DNA of 22,763 nucleotides from the NCBI GenBank assembly GCA_964611725.1, contig CAZTBA010000040.1, positions 1 through 22,763 of the forward strand, written 5' to 3'. Positions 3,758 through 22,033 of the stretch are shown one piece after another. This DNA is from an uncultured bacterium (GTDB taxonomy: Bacteria > Latescibacterota > CAZTBA01). The position numbers and the translations under genes were made by a program. The notes beneath the pieces are model-generated. The model was not told where the DNA came from, did not search any database, and was given only the letters and a program-made list of their open reading frames with translations. The first letter of the stretch is position 1. Each line of letters begins with the position of its first letter.

Positions 3758-3870
3758 TAGAAACTGAGAAGAAACCACCGAACCAGAGGATTGACAGCGA
3801 CTCCGTGAAAGCCTCGCGGTTTCCACTGAGCGCCTCATCCTCGCCGTTCGATGCATGAACTGGAGAGACG

Positions 3871-5202: not shown

Positions 5203-7200
5203 ATGAATGAAACACACCTTATCCCTGTCACAAAGCCCGAAGATATGCTGAAGAGCCGAGAATGGGCGGGACGCTTCCTCTCCGGTCCCGCCGACCTTCC
5301 CGTCTCTTTCATGTTCGATGGAAGGACCATAGGCGGCATCCCGAAAGACTGGCAACCGGTTTCAACCAGACGCCGCATCGACGCCAATATCTTCGAGACG
5401 GTTTTTGAAGGCAGGGACGCCGGGACCGGCTTGAATGTGCGGGTCGAGTGCACGGAGTATCAGGACTACCCGGTTGTGGAATGGGTGGCATGGCTCACCA
5501 ACAAGGGCAATGAAGCCACACCGGTGATCCGTGACATCCTCGCAATGGACGGAACGTTCAATGGTTCTTCGCCCATTCTGTATCACTGCAATGGCGACTT
5601 CTACAGTGAGGAAGGATACACACCTCAAGAGACTCCCCTACGCGCGGGAGCCACACTCGACTTTGCCCCCAACGGGGGCCGTCCCTGTGACGGCGCATTC
5701 CCCTACTACCGAATCATGTTCGAGGACTGCGGTCTATCCATGGCCATCGGCTGGCCCGGGCAGTGGGCGGCAACTTTCAAAGGGCTTGCGGACGGCGTAC
5801 ACGTTCAGGTGGGTCAGGAAAAGACGAATCTTCGGCTCATGCCGGGTGAAAGCATCCGCACGCCGCGAATGACCGTTCTGTCCTGGACAGGGGACGTTTC
5901 AAGAGCGGTAAACCTGTGGCGGCGGTGGTATATTGCCCACATCCTTCCAAGGCCCAACGGTCAACCGATGAAACCGCTGCTGGCCTGCGAGGGCCCTGGT
6001 GACGGCGTGGAATTCACAGCAGCCACCGAAGAGAATCAACTCCTGCATATCGAGATGGCCAAACAGCGTGGAATTCCATTTGACGTCTGGTGGATCGATG
6101 CCGGCTGGTATCCCTGCTACGACGAAAATCATGAAAGAACATGGCCGGTAACAGGCACATGGGAGCCCGACCCCGAAAGGTTTCCCAACGGTCTGAAACC
6201 GGTATCCGACTGCGCAGCCCGAAACGGCGCGGACCTGTTGATCTGGTTTGAGCCGGAAAGAGTACGCCTCGGCACAAAACTCGATGTGGAACACCCGGAA
6301 TGGCTTCTGAGGATGGGTGAGAGCGATAACAGTCTGTTGAATCTGGGCAACCCGGAATGCCGTCAACGGCTTACCGATCACGTGTGCAGGCTGATCAAGG
6401 ACAACGGCATAAAGATCTACAGACAGGATCACAACTTCGAGCCGCTGGAATATTGGCGCAGGAACGAGGACCCGGACCGTCAGGGCATGAATGAGAACCT
6501 GCATGTTCAGGGCTACCTTCAGTACTGGGACGACCTGCTGGCACGAAATCCCGGCCTGTGGCTCGATTCATGCGCGAGCGGAGGACGTCGCAATGACCTC
6601 GAAACCATGCGCCGTTCCGTGCCGCTGCACTATACCGACTACGGGTACGGGGATCATCCGGTGAAGCTGGCATTCCACCACACACTGTATGCGTGGCTAC
6701 CTTATTTCAAGGAATCCGCGCTCTCCTGGGATATCGGCGGAAGGGCGAGGTTCGCCCACCAGGTAGACAGCTTCTCCTACCACTGCGGCATGGCTCCCCT
6801 GTTTTCTACAGCTCTCGACATCCGCCGTGACGACTACGACTATGCCCTTGCCAAGAGAATGATCGACATCTGGCGCCAGGCATCCGATCTGATGCTGTAC
6901 GGCGACTACTATCCCCTTACGCCGTTCCACCGCAGCGCTGAGAAATGGGTCATCTGGCAGTTTGACTGCCCGGAAAAGGGCTGTGGGCTCGTCCAGGGAA
7001 TCCGTCTTCCGGAATCGCCGGAAGAGACCATCACAGTCCATCCGAAGGGTATTCGCTCGGATTCAACGTACTTCTTCGAGAACGCTGAAACTGGTGAGAC
7101 AAGGGACATTTCGGGAGCGGATCTGCTCCACGGTGATTTCACGTTCGCGCTTCCGAAGCGCAGTGGGGCCATCTGGTTCTATCGAAAGAACCCCGAATAG
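5203..7200 (+). CDS. glycoside hydrolase, clan GH-D (GH36/melibiase-like alpha-galactosidase family)
   Basis: 665-aa ORF. SD AAGGGGA lies 5 nt before the ATG. Three motifs match GH36 from memory: 'FDVWWIDAGWY' (like LDDGWF), 'LLIWFEPERV' (like GLWFEPEMV) and 'IKIYRQDHN ... LDSCASGGRRND' (like KWDMNR ... CSSGGGRFD). There is no N-terminal signal peptide. Confidence 0.65.
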   Translation: MNETHLIPVTKPEDMLKSREWAGRFLSGPADLPVSFMFDGRTIGGIPKDWQPVSTRRRIDANIFETVFEGRDAGTGLNVRVECTEYQDYPVVEWVAWLTNKGNEATPVIRDILAMDGTFNGSSPILYHCNGDFYSEEGYTPQETPLRAGATLDFAPNGGRPCDGAFPYYRIMFEDCGLSMAIGWPGQWAATFKGLADGVHVQVGQEKTNLRLMPGESIRTPRMTVLSWTGDVSRAVNLWRRWYIAHILPRPNGQPMKPLLACEGPGDGVEFTAATEENQLLHIEMAKQRGIPFDVWWIDAGWYPCYDENHERTWPVTGTWEPDPERFPNGLKPVSDCAARNGADLLIWFEPERVRLGTKLDVEHPEWLLRMGESDNSLLNLGNPECRQRLTDHVCRLIKDNGIKIYRQDHNFEPLEYWRRNEDPDRQGMNENLHVQGYLQYWDDLLARNPGLWLDSCASGGRRNDLETMRRSVPLHYTDYGYGDHPVKLAFHHTLYAWLPYFKESALSWDIGGRARFAHQVDSFSYHCGMAPLFSTALDIRRDDYDYALAKRMIDIWRQASDLMLYGDYYPLTPFHRSAEKWVIWQFDCPEKGCGLVQGIRLPESPEETITVHPKGIRSDSTYFFENAETGETRDISGADLLHGDFTFALPKRSGAIWFYRKNPE

Positions 7201-7264
7201 AGGACTGAAACCGACACCGAGCGGTACCGCTGACTTCCATTCCGTTACAGAGAGGAGGTGCGTC

Positions 7265-8734
7265 GTGAAGTACATTACCGAACCGGAGAAACGCGTGCCT
7301 GTAGCGCTCGATGCGGACGTTGTCGTAGCCGGCGCCGGCGTGAGCGGCGTGATGGCGGCCATCGCGTCGGCAAGGCACGGTGCGAAGACGGCAATCGTAG
7401 ATCGATTCGGCTCCGTCGGCGGGAATACCGGCCCCGGCTTCATCGCGGGAGGCGGCATGCTGCCCGGCAGCCCACACCCGGACGCCGGGTACTCCCGCAC
7501 GGTGTTTCCCGGGCTGTACGGCATAGCACGGGAGCTGATCGAGCGATACGCCGTGGCGGGCGGGAACGGATTGCAGCCGTACACGAAGCCGCCGTCAAAC
7601 TACGCATACAACGCACACCTCGCATCGTACGTCGCGCAGACGATGCTCGAAGAGAGCGGCGTTCGCGTCATGCTCTCAACTCGTATCGCCGATCCGATCA
7701 TGGATGGAACGAACGTGTGCGGGCTTTTCGTGGAGGACAAGTCGGGCCGACGCGCCGTGACGGCACGGGTGGTTATCGACGCAACCGGCGAGGCGGACGT
7801 GGCGCGACGCGCGGGCGCGCCGGTGCTCTATCCGAAGGACAGCTACCACGAGATCGACGGTCATGCGCCGACGGGCATGGGCATTTACTTCCTCATCGGT
7901 GGCGTGGATTCGGACCGGTACGAGTTGGCGATGGGCGGCGTCGAGGTCTCCGACGAGGATGTCGAATGGGGCATCGCGACGCTGGGCGAGAAACACGCCG
8001 GGGCGTACCGCGCGTTTCTGCCGTTCATGCGGAAGGCGAGCGACCGCGGCGACCTGAATCTGCGCTACACGCACGTCGATCTCGACGGTTCCCGCGTCGC
8101 GCTGTTAGCACAGATGCCATGCAGGAGCGGTACACCGAATTCCTGCCACGGGCGGCTCCAGCCGGAACGGGTCGAGGCGATCGATGCGTCGAACGCCGAC
8201 CACATCTCCGCGCTGGAGATCGGCGTGAGGATGCACCTTATCGAGATGGCGCGGTTCTGGAAGCATTACGTGCCGGGGTTCGAGAATTCGTGCGTGGTCA
8301 ACATCGCGCCGTTCCTCGGGTCGCGCGGCGGGCCGTGCATCGAAGGAGAGTACACGCTGACCATGGACGACTGCAAGGCAGCGCGCCGCTTCGACGACGT
8401 CACGTATCTCTACGGGCAATGGATCGCGCTAAAGCATACGTGCGATCAGGGAAAGTGCGAATGGGCGGATGTTCCCTACCGGGTGATGGTGCCGAAGAGG
8501 ATCGACGGACTGCTCGCGACGGGTCGCTGTGCGTCGTGCATCCCCGACACGCTCCTGAGGAATCGCATGGCGATCAAGGTCCTCGGCGAGGCGACCGGGA
8601 CGGCGGCGGCGCTCGCGGCGAAGAACGGCGTTCGGCCGCGTGATCTCGATAGACGGGAGCTTCAGCGGACGCTTCTCGGCGCGGGGTTTTACCTTGGAGA
8701 CATCGAGCGGCTGAAGCAATTGGGTTTGATCTGA
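7265..8734 (+). CDS. FAD-dependent oxidoreductase (PF12831-like, FAD_oxidored family)
   Basis: The long ORF 6962..8734 overlaps the GH36 3' end at its 5' side. The functional start is most likely GTG 7265, 6 nt after a perfect AGGAGG (7253-7258). A Rossmann GxGxxG (VVVAGAGVSGVMAAIA) lies 15 aa after that start, and the C-terminal ...CASCIPDTLLRNRMAIKVLGEATGTAAALAA segment is typical of this family. Coding is very GC-rich: the alternate frame 7258..8643 is an Arg-rich (RRRRERR...) pseudo-ORF. Confidence 0.8.
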   Translation: MKYITEPEKRVPVALDADVVVAGAGVSGVMAAIASARHGAKTAIVDRFGSVGGNTGPGFIAGGGMLPGSPHPDAGYSRTVFPGLYGIARELIERYAVAGGNGLQPYTKPPSNYAYNAHLASYVAQTMLEESGVRVMLSTRIADPIMDGTNVCGLFVEDKSGRRAVTARVVIDATGEADVARRAGAPVLYPKDSYHEIDGHAPTGMGIYFLIGGVDSDRYELAMGGVEVSDEDVEWGIATLGEKHAGAYRAFLPFMRKASDRGDLNLRYTHVDLDGSRVALLAQMPCRSGTPNSCHGRLQPERVEAIDASNADHISALEIGVRMHLIEMARFWKHYVPGFENSCVVNIAPFLGSRGGPCIEGEYTLTMDDCKAARRFDDVTYLYGQWIALKHTCDQGKCEWADVPYRVMVPKRIDGLLATGRCASCIPDTLLRNRMAIKVLGEATGTAAALAAKNGVRPRDLDRRELQRTLLGAGFYLGDIERLKQLGLI

Positions 8735-8840: not shown

Positions 8841-11800
8841 TTACTGACCCTGCATAACAGACGGTTCCGACTCCGGCTCTTTTCCTCTCAAATAATCAAT
8901 CAGAGGCTGTGTAACTAAGGGAACTACGTCACCGATCATGTGTGGCATCAGGTTATCCATAACCTTCGGCATGAGATCCGGCATCTGCTCCTTCATATAG
9001 TCAGGCATAGGTATGCGTTCACCCACGCGATCCAACATGACCGGCAGTACCTTGGGCATCATCCCGGGAAGCAGCTTCGGAAACAGAACGGGGAACATGG
9101 GCTTCATGAGATTTAGCGCCCCCGGAATCTTACCCATGAACCGCATCATCGGTCCCATCTTAAAGGGCATTGCACCAACCAGCTCCGGCCACATCGTGCC
9201 CATAAGATCCGCAAAACCCTGCGGAGTCATAAGGTCTATCATGGCCTCGAAAACAGCCCACTGCCTCCGCACTTCCGGGTTGGGATCAGGAAACTCATAT
9301 CCCAATGCCGATGACGCGAAGCGAGCGAGATCCACCACTTCTACAGGTATCTGCTTCTTGTCGGCTGAGACGCGGAGTTGAAATTCACAGCAGGGGCAGA
9401 GCGCCAGCACCTTCTCCGCTCCCGCCTCCAGCGCCTCGTCCAAACGAATACTCCCGACATCGGCAGCTACAGGCGGCTCTTTGATGAGTGTCAGGACACT
9501 CCCGCAGCAGTGTGCCTCCTCCCTGTTGTGGCTCATTTCCACAAACTCCACATTCGGGATAGCCTGGATAACTTCGCGTGGCGGTTCATATACGCCCGAT
9601 ACGCGGCCGATGTGGCAGGAGTCGTGCCAGGTCACCTTGGCCGGTTGCTGGTCGTTCTCCGGGAAACTGAACTCTCCCGATCGGATCTTCTCCGCTATTA
9701 CCTCACTGTAATGCTTCGCCTTGATACCATAGTCTATCCCCAGTTTCTCCGCCCAAACCGGGTAGACATGCCGCCACATCATATCGCAGGCAGGGCAAGA
9801 CGTGATGACGGTATCGGCGCCGCTCTCCTTGACAGCCTGGATGTTCTTCCTTATCGTTTCCTCAAATACACCCCACTTGCCCGCTACCAGCATCGGGGTC
9901 CCACAACAGTTTTCCGTTTCTCCCAGGTAGGTGAAGTCCACACCGGCGGCATCAAGCAAACGGACACTGGCCATGCCGATATCGTGCTCAACGTAGCTGG
10001 CGGTACATCCGGCGAAGTAGACATTCTCCGCCCCGCGGCCCGGTCCATGCTTCTCCTTGAGATCCTGCGGGAACCAGGCAGTGCGATCCTTGCGGTAGCC
10101 GGCCCAGATGTCACCCTCCTTCTGAAGCGCTGCCGCCATCATCTCAAACGGCGGAAAGGTCATCATCTTTTTGTCGTCAATGAGCTGACCTCGCAGCTTC
10201 ATCCACGACGGCTCAATCGGAAGAGCAGCGGAGCAACGCAGGTTACACAGCTCACAGGTAGTGCACACCAGGATGGAGTCAACCATGAACTGATCCCATT
10301 TCTCCCTGCCTTCCATATATTCCCTGAGCCAGTACCACTTCCCCCTCGGGGTCTGACTCTCCCAACCTCTACCGTAGAACTGGTCGCACTCCTCGATACA
10401 GTAGCCGCACTGAGAGCAGCTATAGGCATACCAGGCCACATCCGCAGGAATGTCGCGTATAGGTTTCTCAGGTCTCTCGCCGATCGAAGTGATGACATAG
10501 TTGCCAAAAGGTCGGATGAGGGGCTCAAAGACACCGGCAAGGCTCAATGCTGCACCGACGGGACCTCCTCCGATAACCTTGCCGGGGTTCAGCATGCCCC
10601 TGGGATCGACTTGCGCTCTGAACTTCGCCAATCGTCCGGCCCGTTCCTCTCCCAGAACCTCCTTAGCTTTCTTCGCAAAGTAGAGTCCCGTAGAATAGGG
10701 CCTGCCACCATACTTCTCAGCGATCTTCGTGATGGTCAAGACCAGGCTGAAGACCAGATTGTAGCTGAACTTGCGCTGATCGCTGGGGATGAAACCCAGT
10801 ATCACAGCCTCAGCCTTACCACCGGCGCCTTCACGTATGACGACACCTTCTTTGACAACAGGCTGATCGACCTTCCTCTCGATCTCTGTCATCACATCAC
10901 CCAGAGAGGAAAGGGGCACCACCACTTCCGCTGGCACCAGACTGGGGCCCAGTCGCTTGACGACCATCAGCTTAAAGCGGTGTTCCCACTCGTGCCGGGC
11001 GATGCGATCGCTCAGGATCTCAGCTTCACAGGGTCTGAGAAGCTTCGGGAGCCTACCCATCACTGCCTGGCGATCCTTGCTGCGAAAGGCAATGATGATG
11101 ATGTAGGATGCAGGCAACAGCACCCGCTCTTCAACCGGATGGCCGTAATGCTCCATCAGGGGAGACAGGTTCTTAAGCTCTGCCATCCGCGGGTTGATGA
11201 AGACCAGTGACCAGATGGGAAGTCCCTCATCCACCATCGACTGCACCAGCTCCTGCATATCATGGGCATCGGGACAGCCGATGGCAACCACATCCATATC
11301 ATCCAGAGGCTGAACCCGAATGGTCACATCACTGATCAGTCCGGTTGTCCCTTCGGCATCAGCTATCAACTCCAGATCCTCACCGCTGAACTCCCTGACG
11401 CTCCCATCAGGCAACACCGCCCGGGCACTCACTACATTGTCCCGGAACCATCCGGACTCGTAAGAGCCTATTCCGGCACCTCCCTGAGCCAGCCAACCCC
11501 CAACTGTGGATGACGGGTAACTGGTAGGGTAAAGCCGCAAGGTCAGCCCATGTCTGCCAAGCTCCCGGTCAAGCTTCTCCCACACAACACCGGCCTGCAC
11601 TCTGGCCGTCTGTGCCTCAGCGTCAACGCTGATCACCCGGTTCATGTGGTAGAAATCGACTACTATGCCGTTCTTTATCGGCAAAACTCCCCCGTAGCCC
11701 GAGGATGCTTTGCCTCGCGGTGTGAGCTTTAAATCGTTATCTGCTGCCCAGCGGACCAGTTCAACCAGTTCCTCCTCGGTCTCGGGCTGGACGACAGCAT

Positions 11801-11951
11801 CCGGAGTTGTGTCACCGACAAGGGGTTTGATGAGTCCAGGCATGGCAGCGATATCGTGACCGTAGAGTTTTCGCTCAGTTTCATTAAAGGATACACGCTT
11901 GCCAAATTTCTCCTCAAGATATGACCTACGCTTAGAATTTACCTTTCCCAT
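8841..11951 (-). CDS. YdiJ-like fused FAD-linked oxidase / Fe-S oxidoreductase (FAD_binding_4 + FAD-oxidase_C + 2x[4Fe-4S] + 2xCCG domains) with C-terminal Met/Pro-rich extension
   Basis: 1036-aa ORF. SD AGGAGG lies 4 nt before the ATG at 11951. The N-terminus is a PCMH-type FAD-binding domain (GlcD/D-lactate-DH-like). Two ferredoxin Cys motifs follow (YSCSQCGYCIEEC and VCTTCELCNLRC), then two CCG-type Cys-rich domains (FAGCTASY...CCGTP and WHDSCH...CCGS..CPCC) as in GlcF/LutA/HdrD. Overall size and architecture resemble E. coli YdiJ (~1018 aa). The last ~150 aa carry about 22 Met and about 23 Pro. Confidence 0.85.
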   Translation of the reverse strand: MGKVNSKRRSYLEEKFGKRVSFNETERKLYGHDIAAMPGLIKPLVGDTTPDAVVQPETEEELVELVRWAADNDLKLTPRGKASSGYGGVLPIKNGIVVDFYHMNRVISVDAEAQTARVQAGVVWEKLDRELGRHGLTLRLYPTSYPSSTVGGWLAQGGAGIGSYESGWFRDNVVSARAVLPDGSVREFSGEDLELIADAEGTTGLISDVTIRVQPLDDMDVVAIGCPDAHDMQELVQSMVDEGLPIWSLVFINPRMAELKNLSPLMEHYGHPVEERVLLPASYIIIIAFRSKDRQAVMGRLPKLLRPCEAEILSDRIARHEWEHRFKLMVVKRLGPSLVPAEVVVPLSSLGDVMTEIERKVDQPVVKEGVVIREGAGGKAEAVILGFIPSDQRKFSYNLVFSLVLTITKIAEKYGGRPYSTGLYFAKKAKEVLGEERAGRLAKFRAQVDPRGMLNPGKVIGGGPVGAALSLAGVFEPLIRPFGNYVITSIGERPEKPIRDIPADVAWYAYSCSQCGYCIEECDQFYGRGWESQTPRGKWYWLREYMEGREKWDQFMVDSILVCTTCELCNLRCSAALPIEPSWMKLRGQLIDDKKMMTFPPFEMMAAALQKEGDIWAGYRKDRTAWFPQDLKEKHGPGRGAENVYFAGCTASYVEHDIGMASVRLLDAAGVDFTYLGETENCCGTPMLVAGKWGVFEETIRKNIQAVKESGADTVITSCPACDMMWRHVYPVWAEKLGIDYGIKAKHYSEVIAEKIRSGEFSFPENDQQPAKVTWHDSCHIGRVSGVYEPPREVIQAIPNVEFVEMSHNREEAHCCGSVLTLIKEPPVAADVGSIRLDEALEAGAEKVLALCPCCEFQLRVSADKKQIPVEVVDLARFASSALGYEFPDPNPEVRRQWAVFEAMIDLMTPQGFADLMGTMWPELVGAMPFKMGPMMRFMGKIPGALNLMKPMFPVLFPKLLPGMMPKVLPVMLDRVGERIPMPDYMKEQMPDLMPKVMDNLMPHMIGDVVPLVTQPLIDYLRGKEPESEPSVMQGQ

Positions 11952-12079: not shown

Positions 12080-12961
12080 TTAATCAAAAACTGAAAAATA
12101 GTGTTCGAAGAAACGTTCGACATCCACTCCTAAGGCAACCTGATGTTTTGCTTCCGATACACCCGATTTCCAATATGTCATCCCCTTTACCCTTTCACTC
12201 AGGAGCTCTACTTCTACATTACCCTTCTTAAAGGTGCAGATACTGTCATCAAAGATAGTTGCTGCCGCTAAAGGATCATGAAATGTGATAATGTTCCCTT
12301 CCTGAAACCAGATCTCGGCAAAGTCGAGCACGGGACGGAGCAGGTCCGACTGGAATTTCTCCTTAACCTGATCCGCGCCCATTACCACCCGGAGGGTCAC
12401 ATCCAGGCCGACGGAACGGTGGATGGCGACATCGGCTCCGTATACGATAGCTGTCGCGTGGGGATCACAACAGGCGTTCCATTCGATGGGGCCAACCCTC
12501 GGCATACGATTGGTAAAAACCCCGCACATCATCACCAGACCCTTTAAGAGGGATGGTATTTCCCGGTCGACACTGAAAAGAAGCCCCACGTTGGTCAGTG
12601 GGCCGATAGTCAGAAGGATGACTTCCCCTGGATTCTCGCGTATAGTCCGCCTTAGAAATTCAACGGCCTCACCTCTGGGGAACTTCTCATCGTGATCCCA
12701 CTTTTTCACAGCCGCTGCCTGCGGAGCACAGCTTTGTTTCTGGGGAACAAGAAGCGGGATCTCGACCCCTGGAAAAATCGGGATCTGCTTGCCGGCAATC
12801 TTACACAGAACGCTTGCCATCATCGCCCGTTTGTCCGCTTCACCGGTGACCGTTGTAATGCCAAGCAATTCGCACTCGGGCTGAGCCAGTAGATAAGCCA
12901 GACAGACAGCGTCATCAATATCGGAGCCGATGTCTGTATCCAGAAGAACCTTTGTCGGCAT
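12080..12961 (-). CDS. inosine-uridine-preferring nucleoside hydrolase (IUNH family)
   Basis: Canonical N-terminal Ca-binding aspartate cluster [22 protein letters not shown] chose the ATG at 12961 (MPTKV...) because AGAGAGGA lies 7 nt upstream. The ORF-track start at 13039 is a GTG with no SD and would add 26 non-family residues. Confidence 0.85.
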
Positions 12962-13113
12962 TGTGAAATCCTCTCTATCATTGTGATTTTGGCTTTTCAT
13001 ACTATCGAGGGTTTTCAGCGGTTTTAGAAGAAAAATCACACACTACAGCTAAGGCTATATATATAATATATCGCGGCAATTGTCAAGTCCCAACGTATTC
13101 CCTAAAAGAAAAC

Positions 13114-13141
13114 TTGACATATACTTACCATTTTTTATATT
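13114..13141 (+). promoter_or_regulatory. candidate sigma70-type promoter for the histidine kinase gene (TTGACA-16 nt-TATATT)
   Basis: Exact TTGACA at 13114-13119 and TATATT at 13136-13141 with a 16-nt spacer sit in an AT-rich stretch ~65 nt upstream of the ATG at 13207. TTGTCAAG (13080-13087) is a near-perfect inverted repeat of the -35 region (CTTGACA) and is a possible operator. Confidence 0.3.
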
Positions 13142-13206
13142 GATTTTCCAGATTCAGTGAAATTTTTAGGATTTCCAGCAAAGACCTATTTTCATGAGGG
13201 GAAAAA

Positions 13207-15933
13207 ATGAAGGAAAAAAACAAAACAAAAAAGGAACTGATAAGTGAACTGATGGAATTGCGCCAGCGGGTTGCTGAATTGGAAACATCTGAAGCAAAGC
13301 GCAAGCTGGCGCAGGAGGATCTGCGCAGCTCGGAACCGCAATATCGTATGATGATCGATTCCATGGGCGATGCGATTCATATGATCGATGGAAATTTGCG
13401 AATAATCCTTTTCAATAAATCTTTCATGAAGTGGAACGAAGAGCTGGGCCTGGAGACGGATGTAATTGGCAAGGCAATCCACAAGGTCTTTCCCTTTTTG
13501 CCACAGGAAGTTTACGAGGAGTATCACAGGGTATTCAAGACAGGCCAGCTTCTCATCACCGAAGAATGTACGCAAATCGGAGGTAAGGAATTTATCACGC
13601 AGACACGAAAGATCCCGGTATTCGGGAACGGTAAGGTTACCAGAGTTATCACTGTGATACGCGATATCACCGAGCAGCAGAGATCGGAGGAGACATTAAG
13701 TGACAGCGAAAGGCGATACCGGGACCTTTTTGAAAACGCCAACGATATAATATATACACACGATCTTGAAGGAAACATAACCTCAGCAAACAGGGCTGCC
13801 CTGAGCACCTTTGGATATTCCTTAGAGGAAGCCCTGAAGACGAATATAGCCCAGTTGGTGGATCAGGAATATCTGCCTCTGGCCTGGGAAAATACAAAAC
13901 GAAAGTTAGATACAGGGAAACCAACGGCACCCTATGAGCTCCTGTGCCATTCCAGATATGGGAAGGAGATCTGGCTGGAGGTCAACACGCGTTTGATCAA
14001 GGAAGATGGCAGGCCAGTAGCAGTGGAAGGGATTGGGCGAGATGTAACTGAGCGTAAGAAAGCAGAACAAGAGCTTCGGGAGAGCGAAGAATTCAATTTC
14101 GCATTGTTCCATTACAACCCTATCGAAACTGTAGTCGTGGATCGCGAAGGAAGGGTTATCAGATCCAACATGGCAAAAAGGCAGTCAGGCGATAGATTAC
14201 CCAATATCGGAGACTTGATGTATAAGGATTATGCCGGAAAACACGATACCGATATGTTTTCCGAATTGATGGAGTGCATTGGATCAGGCGAGACAAAAAG
14301 TTTCCCTGAACTAAGATATAATGACAGATTTCTATTCATAACGATAGCCCCCTTTCCAAAGGGAGCTATTATAACGTCCAAAGATATCACCGAGTACAAG
14401 CACGCAAAGGAGGCACTCCAGAAGAGCGAGGAAAAATACCGAACCATCTTTGAAACTACCCCGGCTGCGACGTTAATAATTGAGGAAGACACAACGATAT
14501 CTATGGTAAACACAGAATTTGAGAAACTCTTCAGATATTCCAAGGAGGAAACGGAAGGTAAGAAAAGCTGGACTGAGCTCGTCAAGGAAGACAGCCTGGA
14601 GATGACGGAGGAATACCATCGTTTGCGGAGGATTGACCCGGATTCTGCTCCGAAAAACTACGAATGCCAGGTCATTAACAAACAGGGTGATGTTAAGGAT
14701 GTCTTTTTGACGGTTGCAATGATTCCGGGGACAAAGAAGAGTGTGGCATCCGCCTTGGATATCACCGAGCGCAAACAGTTGGGAGAACAGCTTCTCCACG
14801 CCCAGAAGATGGAAGCCGTGGGCCGCCTTGCAGGAGGGGTAGCACACGATTTCAACAACCTTCTAACGGTGATAAACGGATATGCTGAACTTGCACGGGC
14901 AAAGCTTCACAAGGAAAATCCCTTGTATAACTACGTCGAGACAATTAAAAGAGCCGGAGAGAAGGCAGCAAACCTCACGCGACAACTCCTTGCTTTTTCC
15001 CGCCATCAGATAGTTAAACCTCAGGTAATCGATCTCAACTCTGTCACCCTCGATATGGATAAGATGCTCCGCCGCCTCATAGGTGAGGATATAGAGCTTG
15101 TAATAATTCCAAGTAAGGATCTCGGCTCCGTGAAGGCCGACCCCGGGCAGATTGAACAGGCCCTAATCAACCTTATTGTGAACTCCCGTGATGCCATGCC
15201 TGATGGCGGAAAGATAACGATTGAGACAGCCAATGTCGACCTTGAGGAGGTTCACAGCTCAAGTCACGACAGTATTGAGCCCAGGTGTTATGTCATGATC
15301 TCGGTAAGTGATACAGGAATTGGCATGAGTGATGAGGTTAAGTCCCACCTTTTCGAACCTTTTTTCACCACCAAGGAAGTTGACAAAGGAACAGGGCTTG
15401 GTCTTGCCACTGTTTACGGTATAGTGAAACAGAGCGAGGGGTATATTTCCGTTGACAGTGAGGAAGGTAAGGGGACAATATTTAGGATCTATCTGCCATG
15501 TATCGAAGAGACCGCGGATTCTTCTATTGATCGTGATGAGAAAGGCTATCTTCCAAGAGGTGACGAGACAGTCCTCCTTGTTGAGGATGAGCCAAATGTC
15601 CGTGAGTTTGTGAGCAAGATTTTGGAAGATCAAGGCTACACTGTCCTTGAGGCTTCAAACGGAATTGAGGCCCTGAATATTGCGAGAGAACATGATGGGT
15701 ATATCCATCTTCTTCTGACAGATATTGTTATGCCCAAGATAGGAGGTCAGCAGCTTGCTGAGGCAGTGAGGGGGTCTCGTCCTAAAATCAAGGTGTTTTA
15801 TGTTTCAGGTTACACAGACGAGAGCATAATCCGTCAGGAGCTTGTCGACTCCAAAACAGGATTCCTTCAGAAACCCTTCACGGTCTCGTCTTTGATCCGT
15901 AAGACGAGGGAGATACTGGACAAGGAATTCTGA
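13207..15933 (+). CDS. cytoplasmic multi-PAS hybrid sensor histidine kinase (coiled coil, ~4 PAS, HisKA, HATPase_c, C-terminal REC)
   Basis: 908-aa ORF. SD GAGGGGA lies 5 nt before the ATG. H-box '[17 protein letters not shown]', then N/G1/G2 boxes ([31 protein letters not shown]). The C-terminal receiver carries LLVEDE and LLLTDIVMP (phospho-Asp), with K in the FLQKPF motif. There are no hydrophobic transmembrane segments. It is AT-richer than its neighbours. Confidence 0.9.
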
Positions 15934-16003: not shown

Positions 16004-18439
16004 TCAGGGTTGTGTAGAGAAGCGGATATCGCGAAGCGGTTGGCCATCGTGATCAGTAATACGAAAGTAAAATCCCCAATCGAGGCTCGATTGTCCTATC
16101 TTTAGAAGGATGGGGGTCCGTCCGGCGGGCAACTCCACATCGACAACGTCTTCATCCATTTTAGCTGCCCGTGCCACCTGTCTATCAAGCGCCCTGTAGC
16201 TCCCGATCCAGGCAATCACAGAGTCGTTGCTGCCCAGGCGGAGCTGGGCGCGGACGGGATTGGTTGTTTCGACCCAGCACAGGGCGTAGGCCACCGCCCA
16301 TTCCTCCCCATCGAAAAAGTGACTCAGGTCCACATAGCCGTCCCACGGCTGATTGCGGAGCAGGCACCACCCTATCTGCCGGCCACCCTTGCCGGCATAA
16401 CCTGCTTCGAGGTTTATCTCACGCTCAGGTCCATAGACATTACTATGGCCCTTCCAGTCCTCATTGCTGAAAGGACCGATCACGAACCATTCGTTCACCA
16501 GTCCCAACCTTTGCGCCTCCGTGCGCTCGGGCGAGAAGTGCTGGCGAAAATCCTCTTCCTCATACCTCAGACGGCGCTTCACATGCCTTATGGTCACAAT
16601 CCCCTCTAAATTCTCTTCTTCCTGCTGGAGATATTCCACGAGTTGCCCGAATTTACCTTCCGCATCCGCCATAGCGCGATTGAATTCCTCCTCGTTACGC
16701 GCTTCGGGGATCATATCGCGGGTCCATATGTAGTCCATAAAAGTGTGGGTATAGTTGTAAGAAGTACGCACCTTAGCAACACGTTCTTCAACTATCCCGG
16801 TAGTATCGCCTGTCGCGAGTTCCTCCGCCTGACGCAGATACCCGCCAAGGCGTTTCATCAGTTCCGGAATAAGAAAACAGCCTGCATTGCGGAGGGCATT
16901 GCCGGGGAAATGGCGCCCACAATTGGCCATAGCGTCCTCAAGTGCTTCATAGTAGGCGCGCATAGGCTCAGCGGCAGGACCGTAGAAAAGCCGGTAAAAT
17001 TCCTCAAGCAGTGCCCTGACATCTGTATCTGGATCCCAAAGAAGCTTGGCTGCCACGTAGTAGTCAAGAAGGTTCGTCCACACATCTCCCAGCGAATACT
17101 GAGTGAACAGGCCCCGGGTGCCGATGGAAGCGAAATAGGGAATGTCGCGTGAGATCGAGTGGACGATGGGCCAGGGCAGATTGAGCCAGTTCACCTTGCG
17201 GTAGTATTCATAGAAGTAGACGCCGCCCACGCCGCGATCCTGCCAGGCGCTCAGAAGTGCACGGAACTTCGCATTGAGTGGGCAATCCGGATCATCTACG
17301 GGGTGAGCCATGCAGTACTCGTCATAGTGCGTGACTATCACCCGCAAATTGGGATGGGCTCGAAGGTCCGGGTCAAGTGGCGGCTGAGTATAGACATTAT
17401 AGGCCCCTACAAGGACAGGCTGATCGGGAAATTCACGTTCCAGCAGTTCGGCCAGTTTATTGTAGAAGATGAGTGAGCGCCGTGAATAGCGCTGATCCGC
17501 TGCGACATCCGGTTCATCCATTGCGCGGCACCCCTCGCAGTCGCACCAGAACTGGCCGTCGGACGGGGAAAAGGAGATCAGGCTGATAGAGAGATCAGAG
17601 CGCAGCAGCTCCGCCATCCGCTCCGCTACCGTGTGTGCTACCTCGGGATTCGAGTAGCAGAGCTTTGCGTTGCGATCGTTGCAGCGTTTCCCATCTATGA
17701 GTGCGAAATATTCGGGATGTTGGGGGAAATACTCCTTCACCGGAAGGAGCGAGTACTGCGAGTGGTAGATGCTGGGCACGACGCGAAAGGCGGGAGGATA
17801 ATCGGGATCGATCACGCGGTTCATCTTGTTTCGCAGGTTCCAGGCTGTATCTTTGCCAACCCAGCGCATCTCGAACCTCGGCCGCTGCTCTTCGCGGAAA
17901 CCCGGAAGCGAGAGCATGGCACACCGGGGAACTATCTCACCGAGATCTCCGGGAGCATACCACCGCACGCCGCAGTATTTCTCCAGCAGCTCGTAGGCGC
18001 CATAGAGTGTTCCATAATCACCGCCACCGATGATGACCATCGAGGTGCCGTCATTCGAGAGAAGGAAGCCCTCTTTCCCCAGGACATCCAGCCGCTCGCC
18101 GAACTCGGCGAGCGCCCTTTTCGTACGGCCTACAAAGACGCGGGCCTCAGCCTTCTCCCTCCCTTCCGACACTATGCGAAAGTCAGCCCCCGTAATGCGC
18201 CTCAGATATGCACGCAATTCCTCCGCTGCTTGTTGTTCCAAAAAACTCGGATCAACCGGCAGCACTATCTCTGCCAGCGCCCTTTCCCTCTCAGCTAAAA
18301 CCATTGCCGCTCTTTCCGGCATATCGGGAGCTCTCCTGAGCGTACAGCCTGCAATAAGCAACCCGGCTACGGCTCCCATCGCGAAACCTTTCTCAAGCAT
18401 CCTCTGTACTGACCCGATCAACTCTCGAGTTCTCCTCAT
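16004..18439 (-). CDS. DUF4838-like putative glycoside hydrolase lipoprotein (GH20b/GH67N-like N-domain, TIM-barrel-like core, C-terminal beta-sandwich-like domain)
   Basis: 811-aa ORF. The N-terminus has lipobox-like LLIAGC after a basic region. The 'SMVIIGGGDYGTLYGAYELLEKYCGVRWYAPGDLGEIVP' segment matches my memory of the conserved DUF4838 N-domain signature (G(T/S)hYGVYEFLE..LGVRWY.PG). Start is ambiguous: ATG 18439 has no SD, ATG 18400 abuts AGAGG, and ATG 18379 has AAAGG at 7 nt but would remove the signal peptide. Confidence 0.55.
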   Translation of the reverse strand: MRRTRELIGSVQRMLEKGFAMGAVAGLLIAGCTLRRAPDMPERAAMVLAERERALAEIVLPVDPSFLEQQAAEELRAYLRRITGADFRIVSEGREKAEARVFVGRTKRALAEFGERLDVLGKEGFLLSNDGTSMVIIGGGDYGTLYGAYELLEKYCGVRWYAPGDLGEIVPRCAMLSLPGFREEQRPRFEMRWVGKDTAWNLRNKMNRVIDPDYPPAFRVVPSIYHSQYSLLPVKEYFPQHPEYFALIDGKRCNDRNAKLCYSNPEVAHTVAERMAELLRSDLSISLISFSPSDGQFWCDCEGCRAMDEPDVAADQRYSRRSLIFYNKLAELLEREFPDQPVLVGAYNVYTQPPLDPDLRAHPNLRVIVTHYDEYCMAHPVDDPDCPLNAKFRALLSAWQDRGVGGVYFYEYYRKVNWLNLPWPIVHSISRDIPYFASIGTRGLFTQYSLGDVWTNLLDYYVAAKLLWDPDTDVRALLEEFYRLFYGPAAEPMRAYYEALEDAMANCGRHFPGNALRNAGCFLIPELMKRLGGYLRQAEELATGDTTGIVEERVAKVRTSYNYTHTFMDYIWTRDMIPEARNEEEFNRAMADAEGKFGQLVEYLQQEEENLEGIVTIRHVKRRLRYEEEDFRQHFSPERTEAQRLGLVNEWFVIGPFSNEDWKGHSNVYGPEREINLEAGYAGKGGRQIGWCLLRNQPWDGYVDLSHFFDGEEWAVAYALCWVETTNPVRAQLRLGSNDSVIAWIGSYRALDRQVARAAKMDEDVVDVELPAGRTPILLKIGQSSLDWGFYFRITDHDGQPLRDIRFSTQP

Positions 18440-18490
18440 ATTGTGTTAAGAAAGGCCAACACGCTTCGCAGGGATAACGGAGGAGAGATA

Positions 18491-19111
18491 TTACTTGGCA
18501 GCTTTGCGTATGGCAGCTATGGCCGCATCGTAATCGGGATGCTCGCTCAACTCCGGGATGATCTGTTTATAGGCTATGCGTCCGTCTTTACCTATAACGA
18601 AGATAGATCGGGCAAGGAGTCCCATATCCTTGATCAGGACACCGTAATTCAGTCCGAACTCGCGCCACACATGATCCGACAGCACCAGGACACGATCGAC
18701 CTTCTCAGTCTCACAGAACCGCTTCTGCGCGAAGGGCAGGTCCATGCTGATCGTCATCACTGCGACGTCTGACGGGAGGTTCAATATCTCATCGTTGAAA
18801 CGCTTTGTCTGCAGAGCGCAGACACCCGTATCGAGGCTCGGTACAACGCTGATCAAACTGGCTTTGCCTTTGAAACTTGAGAACTTGACCGGCTGGAATT
18901 CAACGTTCACCACCCGGAAATCAGGGGCCGGATCACCAACCTTGACTTCAGGCCCTAACAGCGTCAAAGGTTTGCCTTTCACGGTCACAAGACCTTCTCT
19001 CTCCTGTGGCGTCATCGTATTTACTCCTTGCGAGAGCCCCTGTTCACCGACAAGTGTGGCAAAGAACAGAACGGAGCACCAGACTATGTATTTTCGAACG
19101 TTCCCTGGCAT
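18491..19111 (-). CDS. tpx: thiol peroxidase (Tpx, atypical 2-Cys peroxiredoxin) with signal-peptide-like N-terminus
   Basis: Strong match from memory to E. coli Tpx: PSLDTGVCA (peroxidatic Cys), DLPFAQKRFC (resolving Cys) and EHPDYDAAIAAI near the C-terminus. The ATG at 19111 gives MPGNVRKYIVWCSVLFFATLVGEQGLSQG, which is n/h/c-region-like. The ORF-track start at 19153 is a TTG adding 14 aa, and it falls inside the conserved intergenic repeat (copy 2). Confidence 0.8.
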   Translation of the reverse strand: MPGNVRKYIVWCSVLFFATLVGEQGLSQGVNTMTPQEREGLVTVKGKPLTLLGPEVKVGDPAPDFRVVNVEFQPVKFSSFKGKASLISVVPSLDTGVCALQTKRFNDEILNLPSDVAVMTISMDLPFAQKRFCETEKVDRVLVLSDHVWREFGLNYGVLIKDMGLLARSIFVIGKDGRIAYKQIIPELSEHPDYDAAIAAIRKAAK

Positions 19112-19154
19112 AAAAGAAGCGAAAGCACTCACCTCCTGATAAAGTCTAGGCAAG

Positions 19155-19239
19155 TTTTAGAAAACATCTTTCCCTTTTCTTGTTTTGGAGACGCCTCATC
19201 GAGGCGTCTCTACAGATAAACACCTGAAAAGTCGACAGC
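19155..19239 (-). repeat. conserved ~85-nt intergenic element, copy 2 (inverted orientation relative to copy 1)
   Basis: The minus strand reads GCTGTCGACTTTTCAGGTGTTTATCTGTAGAGACGCCTCGATGAGGCGTCTCCAAAACAAGAAAAGGG. Flanks are identical to copy 1; the hairpin interior (CCTC/GAGG versus ACCC/GGGT) differs but stays fully paired. It begins 20 nt after the encapsulin stop and runs up to the tpx start region. Confidence 0.7.
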
Positions 19240-19258
19240 GACTATAGAGTCTACCATC

Positions 19259-20071
19259 CTATTTGAGCACACATACCGCCGAAGGCTCCACAAGTCGAAG
19301 CGTAAGGCTCTCAGAGATCACAAACTCATATTCTCCACCCGAAGGCCCCACGAAGCCTGTCATCAGGTCCTGTCCAAGCACGATCGAGGCGAACTGTCGC
19401 CCTGATGCCAGCAGCACAGCGCCAGAGCTGATCGCTGGCGCTTTGACTATGCCGTCGGTCACTGCCGATCTTAGATGCTCCATCTCCGCCATATTGCCCT
19501 GGGGATAGCGCCTGAATAGCAGGTTGTAAAGGGACGGAGCAAGCGCCAGAGTATAGGGACCGTGGAGCCCGGCATCGTCCAACTTGGTGATAGCCTTGAT
19601 GATATCATCAACGGCCGCACCGACCTCAGTCCAGGGCTTCAGTTTCAGGGACTGTGTTCCCTTGGCCGTGAGCAAACCCTCAACCCCCAACGCTTTGGAG
19701 CCATGCAATATGAGAGCGTCCTCCTGTCGTGCACAGGCGATCGCCGCTGCTGCAGCCACTTTCAGATCAAAGGACAGTCCAGTCGCCTCAAATGCTGCGA
19801 TGTCGCGTGCCGACAGACTGAATGTGCTCTGAATCAACGCGACGGGCATGGAAGGGCTTGCCATCATGCTCACACTTTCTGAGGTTGTCTCCTCAACCGC
19901 CGCATCCGGGCCCTGTATGGCTTTGAGACCGAGTCCATAAGGGCCATCCACATGCAGCAATCGACGAGCGCTCAACTGGCCCCTGGCAGCAGCCGTGACC
20001 GTCTCATCAATTTTCTCCCATACCTTTTCATCAAACGGAGCATCTCCACGATGTAGAAACTTTTCAGACAT
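19259..20071 (-). CDS. Family 1 encapsulin nanocompartment shell protein (HK97-fold, linocin M18-like)
   Basis: 270-aa ORF. SD AGGAGG lies 8 nt before the ATG. It is colinear with T. maritima encapsulin from memory: LHRGDAPFDEKVWEKIDETV..RRLLHVDGPYG versus LKRSFAPLTEKQWQEID..RKFVDVEGPYG; GPYTLALAPSLYNLL versus GPYTLVINTDRWINFL; C-terminal ILGQDLMTGFVG...FVISESLTLRLVEPSAVCVLK versus ILGQDLSIGYED...[21 protein letters not shown]. Confidence 0.9.
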   Translation of the reverse strand: MSEKFLHRGDAPFDEKVWEKIDETVTAAARGQLSARRLLHVDGPYGLGLKAIQGPDAAVEETTSESVSMMASPSMPVALIQSTFSLSARDIAAFEATGLSFDLKVAAAAAIACARQEDALILHGSKALGVEGLLTAKGTQSLKLKPWTEVGAAVDDIIKAITKLDDAGLHGPYTLALAPSLYNLLFRRYPQGNMAEMEHLRSAVTDGIVKAPAISSGAVLLASGRQFASIVLGQDLMTGFVGPSGGEYEFVISESLTLRLVEPSAVCVLK

Positions 20072-20170
20072 CGATTCTACCTCCTACCACCAAACATGCA
20101 TTTCCTAAAGACATCTCAAAGTCCAAGCCTATCTAATCCATATGGTATTACCTGTTCGAAGCGCGAGATA

Positions 20171-20530
20171 TTATTCTTTCATATCCCCCACTGTAGGGAT
20201 CGATTTACTTTCGGATTCCGGGGATTCGCCCCTTTCGATCTCCTCGGCGATTTCGCTCACCTCCGCAGCGCCATCCGCCAGAAGTTTCTCCTCATCCGGC
20301 AGCAATATATTGAGCAAACGCTGGAACTCGCCTGCGTGCACGCGCTCCTCGTTGGCTATATCCTGCAATACTGCCTTCGCCAGCTTATTATCGGTAGCGT
20401 CAGCCAAAGCTTCGTAGAGGTGAACCGCTTCTTCCTCCGCCGAGAGTGTCATGCGGATAGCCCTGGTCAGTTCGCGCGCCGTCAATTTACGAGGAACCAC
20501 GCCGCTGAACGGATTGATAAATTCAGCCAT
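20171..20530 (-). CDS. encapsulated ferritin-like protein (EncFtn/Flp) cargo with C-terminal targeting peptide
   Basis: 119-aa ORF immediately upstream of and co-oriented with the encapsulin gene. SD AAAGGAG lies 8 nt before the ATG. It has two E-x-x-H ferroxidase-type motifs (EEEAVH, NEERVH) on predicted helices, as in EncFtn. The acidic linker then ends in SIPTVGDMKE, which resembles the TVGSLK-type cargo-loading peptide. Confidence 0.85.
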   Translation of the reverse strand: MAEFINPFSGVVPRKLTARELTRAIRMTLSAEEEAVHLYEALADATDNKLAKAVLQDIANEERVHAGEFQRLLNILLPDEEKLLADGAAEVSEIAEEIERGESPESESKSIPTVGDMKE

Positions 20531-20650
20531 TCTACTATCTCCTTTCTGCCAAATGCTCAGGTTTCTTATAGATCCCTGAACTAAAAATACAGTGACCCTA
20601 CTCTTCTGAGGGCTGGTGTCTTGCCTTGGATATTATTGTTTTCTAATCAT

Positions 20651-21721
20651 TTATCCAAAATGCGCAGAAGGCCCTTTTTCTCCGCTCTCGGCCCTGGTGT
20701 CCATATAGTGTCCATCGGGGTCTATTTTCTCGATTGAAGACCGCAAATGATCAGGCGCAAGATGGGCATACCTCATAGTGGTTTTAATGTCCCTATGGCC
20801 TAAAAGCTTCTGCACCGTTGCCAGATCCACTCCTGCCATTACAAGGTGGGATGCAAAAGTGTGACGGAGATCGTGAAAGCGAATGTGAGGTAATCCGGCT
20901 TTCCTCAAAGCTTTCTCGAAGCTCCACCATATTCTGTGAAATCTATTCCCATCAGGTTTGCAGAATACATAGTTGCTTGAGATGTGGTGGGGTAGTCCGC
21001 TCAAGATACCGTACAGGAAATTACTCATCGGTATGGCTCTTGGCTCGTAGTTCTTGGGATGCCAGTCCTCCTTGTTATTGACAGTGATTATCCTGTTCCT
21101 GAAGTCTACATCAGACCACTGAAGGTTGAATATCTCTGATTTCCTCATACCAGTTTGAAGAGCTGTAGCTACCATGGCATGGATATAGCCGCTGCAATTA
21201 TCCAGAAGCCTTCTGGTTTCTTCCCTACTGAGGTATTTGGGGGGAAGCGGACTTTCCTTGAGCCCTCTAACTCCAGAAGCAGGATTTGACCTTAAGTAAC
21301 CCCAGTCAACAGCTTTTCTCAGCATCTTTTTGATGGCAAATAATTCCATATTTACAGTTCCTTCTTTGACCCGAATCACCCTCTTTTCTTTGTAGCTTTC
21401 TATCATCCTGCTTGTAATATCGAATAGATGCTTCCCCTTAAAATAAGGAACCAGATGGACATTTACGCTGATTATATCCCTTTCATAACTACGCCCGGAT
21501 TTGTTGGTCTTAGAATACTCGAGATATTCCTTTGCGTAATCCTCGAATAAGATTTTCTTGGTCTCACTCACACCAAGGATCTCACCCCTGGCAATTTTGA
21601 GCTGCACATCCTTTAAAGCAAGCTCAGCAAGCTGTTTTGAAGGGCCGATCTTCCTACGCTTTCTCTGGCCATTGTGGTAATAGTCGATGTACCAGTTATC
21701 ATCCTTCTTGTAGACACCCAT
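20651..21721 (-). CDS. tyrosine site-specific recombinase / phage-type integrase
   Basis: 356-aa ORF. SD GGAGGT lies 7 nt before the ATG. The C-terminal catalytic region HDLRHTFASHLVMAGVDLATVQKLLGHRDIKTTMRYAHL has the H-x-x-R box and the nucleophile Tyr in RYAHL. An upstream R in 'TGMRKSE' gives the family's box-I Arg. The N-terminal ~100 aa are SAM-like/arm-binding. Confidence 0.9.
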   Translation of the reverse strand: MGVYKKDDNWYIDYYHNGQRKRRKIGPSKQLAELALKDVQLKIARGEILGVSETKKILFEDYAKEYLEYSKTNKSGRSYERDIISVNVHLVPYFKGKHLFDITSRMIESYKEKRVIRVKEGTVNMELFAIKKMLRKAVDWGYLRSNPASGVRGLKESPLPPKYLSREETRRLLDNCSGYIHAMVATALQTGMRKSEIFNLQWSDVDFRNRIITVNNKEDWHPKNYEPRAIPMSNFLYGILSGLPHHISSNYVFCKPDGNRFHRIWWSFEKALRKAGLPHIRFHDLRHTFASHLVMAGVDLATVQKLLGHRDIKTTMRYAHLAPDHLRSSIEKIDPDGHYMDTRAESGEKGPSAHFG

Positions 21722-21805: not shown

Positions 21806-22033
21806 CTACTGAAGAGAATCGTCAGCCGGCTCGTTCAACTCCTCTAACCAACCCTCTATATCGGACATTCTGAATCTCAGATGCCTCCCGATCTTCAAGA
21901 AGGGGATTTTCCTTTGGAATGTCAGTCTATAGATATAGCTCTTCTTAAGACGCAAGATCCCACACAAATCATCAATTGTTAAAAGAGATTCAGAGGTTGT
22001 GTCTTGGCTACAAGCAATCCTGTTCATATTCAT
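21806..22033 (-). CDS. excisionase/AlpA-type helix-turn-helix DNA-binding protein (HTH_17-like)
   Basis: 75-aa ORF directly upstream of and co-oriented with the integrase. LLTIDDLCGILRLKKSYIYRLTFQRKIPFLKIGRHLRFRMSDIEGWLE fits the excisionase-family HTH pattern (L.i.e.a..L.vs.stiyrl...g.iP..kiGr..rf....l..wl). No SD is visible. Confidence 0.6.
   Translation of the reverse strand: MNMNRIACSQDTTSESLLTIDDLCGILRLKKSYIYRLTFQRKIPFLKIGRHLRFRMSDIEGWLEELNEPADDSLQ

Follow-up and report, generated by a model that had tools for sequence, protein, structure and literature searches.

The locus

The window analysed here is an entire contig of a metagenome assembly (CAZTBA010000040.1, 22,763 nt, from an uncultured Latescibacterota bacterium). 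Towards its right-hand end it carries genes for a ferritin-like encapsulin cargo protein (EncFtn), a Family 1 encapsulin shell protein (enc), and a thiol peroxidase (tpx), next to a tyrosine integrase gene (Table 1). The arrangement is probably best read as a chromosomal Family 1 encapsulin iron-storage system, of a metagenome-assembled genome of PVC (Verrucomicrobiota-like) type, beside a separately translated cytoplasmic Tpx, the whole forming a loose cluster of stress genes, with the integrative element lying outside this module and its adjacency incidental. The system is a known one, and the cluster is a loose association of stress genes rather than a demonstrated operon. Family calls were made against the curated cut-offs of Pfam and NCBIfam, with PHROG added for the genes on the integrase side.

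An earlier reading of this DNA from its letters and open reading frames (ORFs) alone, below called the sequence-only reading, had joined the three genes into a single oxidative-stress and iron module. Its coordinates, its minus-strand order, and its spacings of 99, 105, and 120 nt are right for the longest ORFs: according to the ORF listing, 120 nt separate the integrase stop from the cargo start, and the next two gaps are 99 nt (20072-20170) and 105 nt (19154-19258). Every gene from orf174, on the far side of the integrase, through the DUF4838 gene beyond tpx is on the minus strand.

Table 1. Coordinates of the features discussed, in the window unless a related locus (L number) is given
Feature	Position	Strand	Basis or remark
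DUF4838 lipoprotein-like glycosidase homologue, 811 aa	16004-18439	-	ORF listing
Tpx (atypical 2-Cys peroxiredoxin), 174 aa from ATG 19015	18491-19015	-	NF001808
Repeated intergenic element, ~93 nt	19156-19248; second copy 1345-1437	-; second copy +	inverted repeat I1, 93 nt, 74%
Family 1 encapsulin shell protein, 270 aa	19259-20071	-	Linocin_M18, encap_f1
Cargo-shell spacer, 99 nt	20072-20170	-	holds the shell gene's AGGAGG ribosome-binding site
Ferritin-like encapsulin cargo (EncFtn/Flp type, EncB/EncC subfamily), 119 aa	20171-20530	-	NF058679 EncB_fam, Pfam Rubrerythrin
Integrase-cargo spacer, 120 nt, AT-rich (GC 0.39)	20531-20650	-	presumed element/host junction; must also hold the cargo promoter
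Tyrosine integrase, 356 aa	20651-21721	-	PF00589 1.5e-35; phrog_1 1.2e-80
HTH_17 excisionase-like gene	21806-22033	-	PF12728 3.2e-13; phrog_66, phrog_1840
orf174, acidic, 174 aa	22141-22665	-	no Pfam or PHROG match
Conserved island, Verrucomicrobiota-like metagenome-assembled genomes	L001 8047-20071; L002 3074-14269; L003 3391-14725
Junctions of integrase relatives	L035 11054-11284; L036 1232-1333		tRNA-Phe (+tRNA-Met); tRNA-Leu by smpB

The encapsulin pair

The cargo protein scores 112 bits against NCBIfam NF058679 (EncB_fam, cut-off 90) and matches Pfam Rubrerythrin (3.3e-07); its scores against TIGR04535 and Pfam EncFtn-like are under the cut-offs of those families. The best solved relative is Myxococcus xanthus EncC (7S8T, 6.9e-18). 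The ferroxidase motifs of the window cargo, AEEEAxxLY and EERVH (E...Y and EExxH), line up with those of EncC and of the Pyrococcus furiosus EncFtn domain, and are invariant across eight orthologues. After a variable linker, the extreme C-terminus is likewise kept in eight orthologues as xPTVG[DEN][LM][KR], with TVG invariant; here it reads IPTVGDMKE, encoded at 20174-20200. This has the layout of a Family 1 targeting peptide, predicted as such from its sequence and position, and matches the published TVGSL-type consensus.

The shell protein matches Pfam Linocin_M18 (PF04454, 6.8e-75) and scores 250 bits against NCBIfam NF041155 (encap_f1, cut-off 100). Its AlphaFold2 model (pLDDT 89.5) has an HK97 fold and was matched by Foldseek to solved Family 1 shells with TM scores of 0.80-0.86. 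By sequence the top solved shells, at 142-157 bits, are those of D. quercicolus (9I8E) and M. xanthus (EncA) and the T=4 shell of Q. thermotolerans, while the T=1 shells of Thermotoga maritima and Haliangium ochraceum match at 82-96 bits. When the modelled protomer is superposed on solved ones, the rmsd is 2-3 Å for those of T=1 type and 6-7 Å for those of T=3/T=4 shells. As to T number, then, the sequence favours EncA-type shells (T=3 and T=1) and the AlphaFold2 protomer favours a T=1-type E-loop; the T number of encapsulins depends on the conformation of this loop (PMC11664910). Sequence and model thus lean different ways, and the T=1 shells expected in the sequence-only reading are neither supported nor refuted by them.

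The shell has at least 1100 homologues at E<=1e-20; an exact look-up of it in the contig index gave no match. Gene neighbourhoods were compared over ~11 loci with related shells. This sample is a small one: scanning with single proteins yielded only 5 and 13 loci from genome and metagenome contigs, mostly short. The cargo-shell pair is present in every related locus and is the only invariant unit among them. The spacer between the two genes ranges from 52 to 130 nt in the relatives, and its ribosome-binding site is the sole part conserved in DNA alignments; alignments of the regions upstream of EncFtn and downstream of enc likewise gave no breakpoint and no conserved regulatory element. One relative has a cargo-shell spacer unlike that of every other locus, made of tandem short GC-rich hairpin-forming units (GGAGTTCGGGAGCCGTGCTCCCG...; L024, 9865-10006).

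The sequence-only reading had recognised a classic pair of ferritin-like cargo and Family 1 encapsulin, and this holds, with the ferroxidase residues kept and the C-terminal peptide conserved. Two groups of studied systems invite comparison. The M. xanthus system (EncA with EncB and EncC; PDB 4PT2, 7S20, 7S8T) is alike in having an EncB-family cargo, of which EncC is the best solved match, and a shell, EncA, that is among the best matches to the one here; in both, the cargo gene adjoins the shell gene, and the cargo has a C-terminal targeting peptide and ferroxidase residues. Unlike M. xanthus, the window has a single cargo gene, and the identity of the shells is only ~32%; at 270 aa, the window shell is also ~10 residues shorter over the aligned region than the closest solved shells (278-287 aa). 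The classical EncFtn/Flp encapsulins (Rhodospirillum rubrum; H. ochraceum, 7ODW; T. maritima, 3DKT; P. furiosus, 5N5E) share the two-gene layout of cargo then shell, and a half-ferritin cargo with an E/ExxH ferroxidase site. They differ in that the window cargo falls under the TIGR04535 and Pfam EncFtn-like cut-offs, and in that its shell is closer in sequence to the EncA type.

The thiol peroxidase gene

Tpx scores 187 bits against the NCBIfam thiol peroxidase equivalog NF001808 (cut-off 123) and aligns with B. subtilis Tpx (2JSY) at 1.8e-47, with both cysteines in register (PSLDTGVC and FAQKRFC). The two, peroxidatic and resolving, are invariant among 14 homologues.

The start of the gene matters for its distance from enc. 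The longest ORF (18491-19153) begins at a TTG at 19153, without a ribosome-binding site. The ATG at 19015 is preceded, at 8 nt, by an AAGGAG motif; translation from it gives the 174 aa of the recorded product of the contig (P0121); and a length of 173-175 aa is seen in the closest homologues (73-78% identity). Because of the motif, the recorded product, and the homologue lengths, tpx probably starts at ATG 19015 and not at TTG 19153. The enc-tpx spacer is therefore ~243 nt rather than 105 nt; alternative starts would give 105-147 nt. That tpx follows enc in the same orientation, as had been proposed, stands, but the 105-nt gap given with it probably does not.

The tpx frame remains open upstream (window 19016-19153, minus strand), where it encodes a signal-peptide-like stretch (MPGNVRKYIVWCSVLFFATLVG). 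This aligns with the signal or lipoprotein leaders of 195-228-aa homologues; the lipobox Cys present in many of those leaders is absent from the window stretch. To judge by these alignments, the stretch may be either a relic leader or part of an exported isoform.

The Tpx C-terminus (...AAIAAIRKAAK) has no TVG-type targeting peptide, nor do those of its homologues; since the peptide is absent, Tpx is, as far as its sequence tells, not an encapsulin cargo. On its other side, tpx has the unrelated DUF4838 gene at a distance of just 51 nt, closer than enc, and co-orientation and spacing therefore say little about function here.

A repeated stem-loop in the enc-tpx spacer

Between enc and tpx lies an element of ~93 nt. 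Its core, at 19188-19210, is a GC-rich stem of 10 bp without mismatches, closed by a loop of 3 nt (-18.3 kcal/mol, z -4.7). The window holds a second copy downstream of an aldo/keto reductase (AKR) gene, in the same orientation relative to the gene upstream of it; in alignment, the stems of the two copies differ by two compensatory base-pair changes. The window has two matches to the 35-nt core pattern where chance would give none, and the pattern is absent from all 38 related loci fetched and from viral contigs. The sequence-only reading had taken this hairpin for a conserved one. The stem-loop is real, and it is repeated within the window, but the related loci lack it: it is a genome-specific repeated structured element.

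The sequence after the stem is CCAAAACA, without a U-tract. The stem-loop does not have the make-up of an intrinsic (Rho-independent) terminator, the stem being followed by CCAAAACAAGAAAAG with no U-tract, and the terminator scan does not list it. A consensus scan called neither a terminator nor a sigma-70 promoter in the enc-tpx spacer, although the consensus may not apply to this phylum. It seems conceivable that the element could attenuate or stabilise transcripts. Lying behind a spacer of 243 nt that holds this stem-loop, tpx is probably expressed separately from EncFtn-enc, or at an attenuated level, and not as part of a strict operon.

Next to the second copy, its 3' part recurs in inverted orientation at 1294-1325, overlapping the AKR stop codon, and the ~145-nt region 1294-1445 folds as one long imperfect hairpin (z -4.7). 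This is an architecture like that of miniature inverted-repeat transposable elements or repetitive extragenic palindromic sequences. The presence of two ~93-nt copies in 22.7 kb suggests that there are many copies per genome. The 465-nt intergenic region that holds the second copy also contains a 32-nt inverted repeat (75%; 1589-1620 and 1676-1707), which could be a small RNA or another repeat. Hairpins downstream of enc in the relatives were considered as a comparison for the stem-loop and not used: stable stems are found everywhere, there was no control, and some lie within the next genes.

Encapsulin and tpx neighbourhoods in relatives

The four closest shells (72-74% identity; one labelled Verrucomicrobiota) belong to pairs that lie within a syntenic oxidative-stress island of ~12 kb. 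In L001-L003 its order is Fur - Rbr/Dfx - EncFtn - Enc - Rbr - (Trx) - Tpx - multihaem cytochrome - Dfx - Ftn - Rbr-like - SOD - PFOR - ZIP: Enc is followed by one or two rubrerythrin-type genes, and sometimes by thioredoxin, before Tpx is reached. Of L022 and L017, only the beginning of this island is available, L022 being cut off after the second rubrerythrin. The island is an unusual combination in its own right: a multihaem cytochrome of 504 aa separates Tpx from superoxide reductase (SOR), and PFOR and a ZIP transporter close the series. The other related loci are different: L024 has a thioredoxin and a thioredoxin-reductase-like gene upstream of the encapsulin pair, L026/L010 a flavodoxin-like reductase downstream of it, and in L005, L006, L008, and L013 the genes around the pair are unrelated (glycosidase, PDH E1, sulfatase).

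A survey of encapsulin neighbourhoods for tpx had been proposed as a check on the module; in the small sample compared here, the three genes do not keep a common order and adjacency. A Tpx gene lies one to three genes downstream of enc in L001-L003 only; within the available flank, about 7-10 kb, none was found in six other loci (L005, L006, L008, L010/L026, L013, and L024), and direct enc-tpx adjacency occurs in none of the ~11. Moreover, the island Tpx proteins form a clade of their own, with 80-81% mutual identity and 51-57% identity to the window Tpx. The clade of the window Tpx (64-76% identity; 73-76% in operon loci) directly follows a classical ferritin in operons of the form Rbr-Dfx-Rbr-Ftn-Tpx(-G6PD-ZIP), Ftn and Tpx being directly adjacent in L027-L031. 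In one Lentisphaerae lineage, a Tpx of this clade is found near hemerythrin. An iron-storage gene followed by tpx thus appears, from these gene orders, to be a recurring theme across two Tpx lineages, while the specific three-gene arrangement EncFtn-enc-tpx is, among the loci compared, unique to this contig.

The likeness is to oxidative-stress islands of anaerobes under Fur-family (PerR-like) regulators: the closest relatives hold the same encapsulin pair and a Tpx in such an island, and the lineage of the window Tpx occurs in the Rbr-Dfx-Rbr-Ftn-Tpx operons. By comparison with these islands, however, the window has only three of the genes, and no regulator, rubrerythrin, or SOR.

The most serious alternative is that tpx is a chance neighbour, linked to the encapsulin pair neither in function nor in regulation and lying just downstream of it much as the DUF4838 gene does. 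The lack of direct adjacency in the relatives, the six loci without Tpx in their flanks, the Tpx lineage that is not orthologous to that of the L001-L003 islands, and the 243-nt gap with its strong stem-loop, beside only 51 nt on the DUF4838 side, are all as this explanation would have them. Several of these facts (tpx never directly adjacent, a different Tpx lineage, the wider gap with its stem-loop) also weaken the proposal of one module. One argument against chance is that both Tpx lineages recur by iron-storage or oxidative-stress genes, as Ftn-Tpx in L027-L031 and one to three genes after enc in L001-L003. For a gene usually present in one copy, chance would hardly produce such recurrence. 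This argues against pure chance, which we consider unlikely.

The integrase and the edge of the mobile element

The integrase has its catalytic residues R...HxLRH...H...Y visible in the translation and is, by its sequence, a generic tyrosine recombinase with intact motifs; no close phage or viral-contig relative was found for it. The HTH_17 gene upstream of it has counterparts of the same type, placed likewise, in L035 and L037/L038. Among integrase relatives for which context is available, the closest (60% identity) are each the terminal gene of a small element, also with an HTH_17 gene and in one case with a RepA_N/DnaA_N-like protein. In each, a tRNA gene (tRNA-Phe or tRNA-Leu) lies on the other strand 15-45 nt past the integrase stop, and housekeeping genes come next. 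These relatives are classic tRNA-targeted small integrative elements. Since their integrase is terminal and host genes lie beyond it, the DNA past the integrase stop in the window would, by analogy, be host DNA as well. The window resembles such elements, which have a lambda-like attL-int-xis layout, in having an HTH_17 excisionase-like gene and then a tyrosine integrase reading towards the end of the element; it differs in that the relatives abut tRNA-Phe or tRNA-Leu, whereas there is no tRNA at the junction in the window and the other end of the element is off the contig.

Composition also changes at this point. The GC content at third codon positions (GC3) is 0.62 in EncFtn, 0.59 in enc, 0.63 in tpx, and 0.63 in the DUF4838 gene, versus 0.51 in the integrase gene, 0.54 in the excisionase-like gene, and 0.51 in orf174. 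That an integrase-bearing segment lies right beside the module, as the sequence-only reading noted, is therefore borne out, and the segment is of different composition. Of the two explanations offered with that reading, insertion of an element beside the module is the one favoured by GC3 and by the layout of the relatives, and carriage of the module as mobile cargo is not. By analogy with those relatives, the integrase, the excisionase-like gene, and orf174 would belong to a lower-GC integrative element that ends in the 120-nt spacer, leaving the module outside. No integrase homologue was found near any of the other encapsulin loci compared; the linkage that had been pointed out is unique to this contig, and the adjacency looks incidental.

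A tRNA remnant in the integrase-EncFtn spacer was also considered, on a superficial likeness in alignment to the tRNA junctions of the relatives, and was rejected, having no support from ARAGORN or Rfam. Rfam at its gathering score returned nothing real in the window.

As a second alternative, the element might itself carry EncFtn-enc-tpx, the integrase then being an internal gene or lying at the end remote from the module. The uniform orientation from orf174 to the DUF4838 gene, the lack of an att site or tRNA between the integrase and EncFtn, and the several compositional shifts along the contig would suit this explanation. So would the shells themselves in a general way: relatives at 60-74% identity span Verrucomicrobiota, Chloroflexota, and Planctomycetota, and the star-like shell phylogeny across these phyla suggests horizontal transfer of the cassette. 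Yet the GC3 of the module fits the DUF4838 gene and the backbone and not the integrase, excisionase-like gene, and orf174; the integrase of the relatives is terminal, with host housekeeping genes next to it; and the other encapsulin loci lack an integrase. We regard carriage by the element as improbable. That the junction at ~20.5-20.65 kb joins two unrelated fragments is very improbable: although the window is one metagenome contig with an abrupt GC change at the junction and a contig end 2 kb beyond, no repeat or low-complexity sequence that could promote a chimera occurs there, and contig breaks inside mobile elements are usual for real insertions.

How the locus might work

Flp/EncFtn encapsulins have been proposed to serve both in iron homeostasis or storage and in resistance to oxidative stress, and Flp-fusion operons contain ferritin-like proteins or rubrerythrins (PMC8346489). 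Going by the families to which the proteins of the window belong, the 119-aa ferritin-like cargo would be tethered within the HK97-fold shell through its C-terminal PTVGDMKE and would oxidise Fe2+, the mineral being laid down inside the shell and the iron so kept from Fenton chemistry. Tpx, separately translated and cytoplasmic, would reduce H2O2 and organic hydroperoxides with thioredoxin. The cargo-shell cassette would be one that tends to sit among oxidative-stress genes in this lineage, the window holding a minimal version of such a cluster. Only cargo and shell would be fixed in it, and tpx would be a loosely linked cistron behind its long spacer and strong stem-loop.

Several observations weigh against this picture of a loose cluster beside an integrative element. 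On the side of Tpx, translation from an ATG at 19111, which has no ribosome-binding site at a normal distance, may yield an exported protein, physically apart from the cytoplasmic shell. Read-through from enc into tpx is possible, to judge from a stem-loop that has no U-tract and is not called as a terminator. As for regulation, L001-L003 have a Fur-family gene, and no Fur or PerR gene occurs in the window; a tblastn search of the window for relics of Fur, rubrerythrin, ferritin, SOR, multihaem cytochrome, G6PD, and ZIP found none; and a crude screen of 21 spacers for AT-rich 7-1-7-type Fur/PerR-like palindromes found none in those of the window and one in L001. With neither gene, relic, nor operator in the window, common regulation is therefore inferred from the relatives only.

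On the side of the element, neither a tRNA nor a tRNA fragment was found at the junction (ARAGORN over the whole window, Rfam at E<=5 over 18400-20800). The contig ends 2 kb into the element, and its boundary rests on composition and analogy, with no att site to mark it. The GC3 of the backbone is itself patchy (0.47 in the AKR gene, 0.52 in a histidine kinase gene, 0.54 in a nucleoside hydrolase gene): low-GC patches at 12080-15933 and 265-1296 contain a hybrid PAS/histidine-kinase/receiver gene, the nucleoside hydrolase, and the AKR. On this contig, then, foreign DNA is only weakly marked by its composition.

Two further steps can be proposed, as a pair and tentatively; we think them unlikely. 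In this PVC lineage the encapsulated ferritin may fill the slot that, in the sister operons Rbr-Dfx-Rbr-Ftn-Tpx, belongs to the classical ferritin directly upstream of tpx, and the element may have landed in the promoter region, cutting the cassette off from a Fur-family regulator and rubrerythrin. The insertion point is the position that rubrerythrin/SOR and the Fur-family regulator occupy in the closest relatives.

Other features of the contig

Some genes away from the module deserve mention. A FAD_oxidored-family gene (window 6962-8734, plus strand; 2.2e-66) has a GC content of 0.63 and a GC3 of 0.77, markedly above its neighbours; its longest ORF overlaps the end of a melibiase-like gene (5203-7200) by 239 nt, so that its start is probably later. 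At 2558-4989 and 8841-11951 are two URO-D-family genes in tandem, possibly of the methyltransferase type, and, near them, the gene for a 1036-aa fusion protein with FAD-linked oxidase, 4Fe-4S, and CCG domains.

Implications

No paper linking encapsulins to tpx or thiol peroxidase was found in the literature searched. The tpx neighbourhood is a small undescribed detail, and no new kind of system. It adds one data point to the view of the Flp-type encapsulin cassette as a portable two-gene unit, and the integrase adjacency is a caution against reading function into a neighbourhood. One Verrucomicrobiota-like clade embeds this cassette in a large oxidative-stress island of the anaerobe type, which fits the dual role proposed for such encapsulins (PMC8346489). 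If the encapsulin does occupy the ferritin slot, and two Tpx lineages have been recruited beside one encapsulin lineage, this would point to selection for co-expressing iron sequestration and peroxide removal; and if the element did land in the promoter region, the cassette might be transcribed by read-through from xis-int. Were the tpx linkage to recur among encapsulins more widely, it would bear modestly on how iron sequestration and peroxide removal are organised together.

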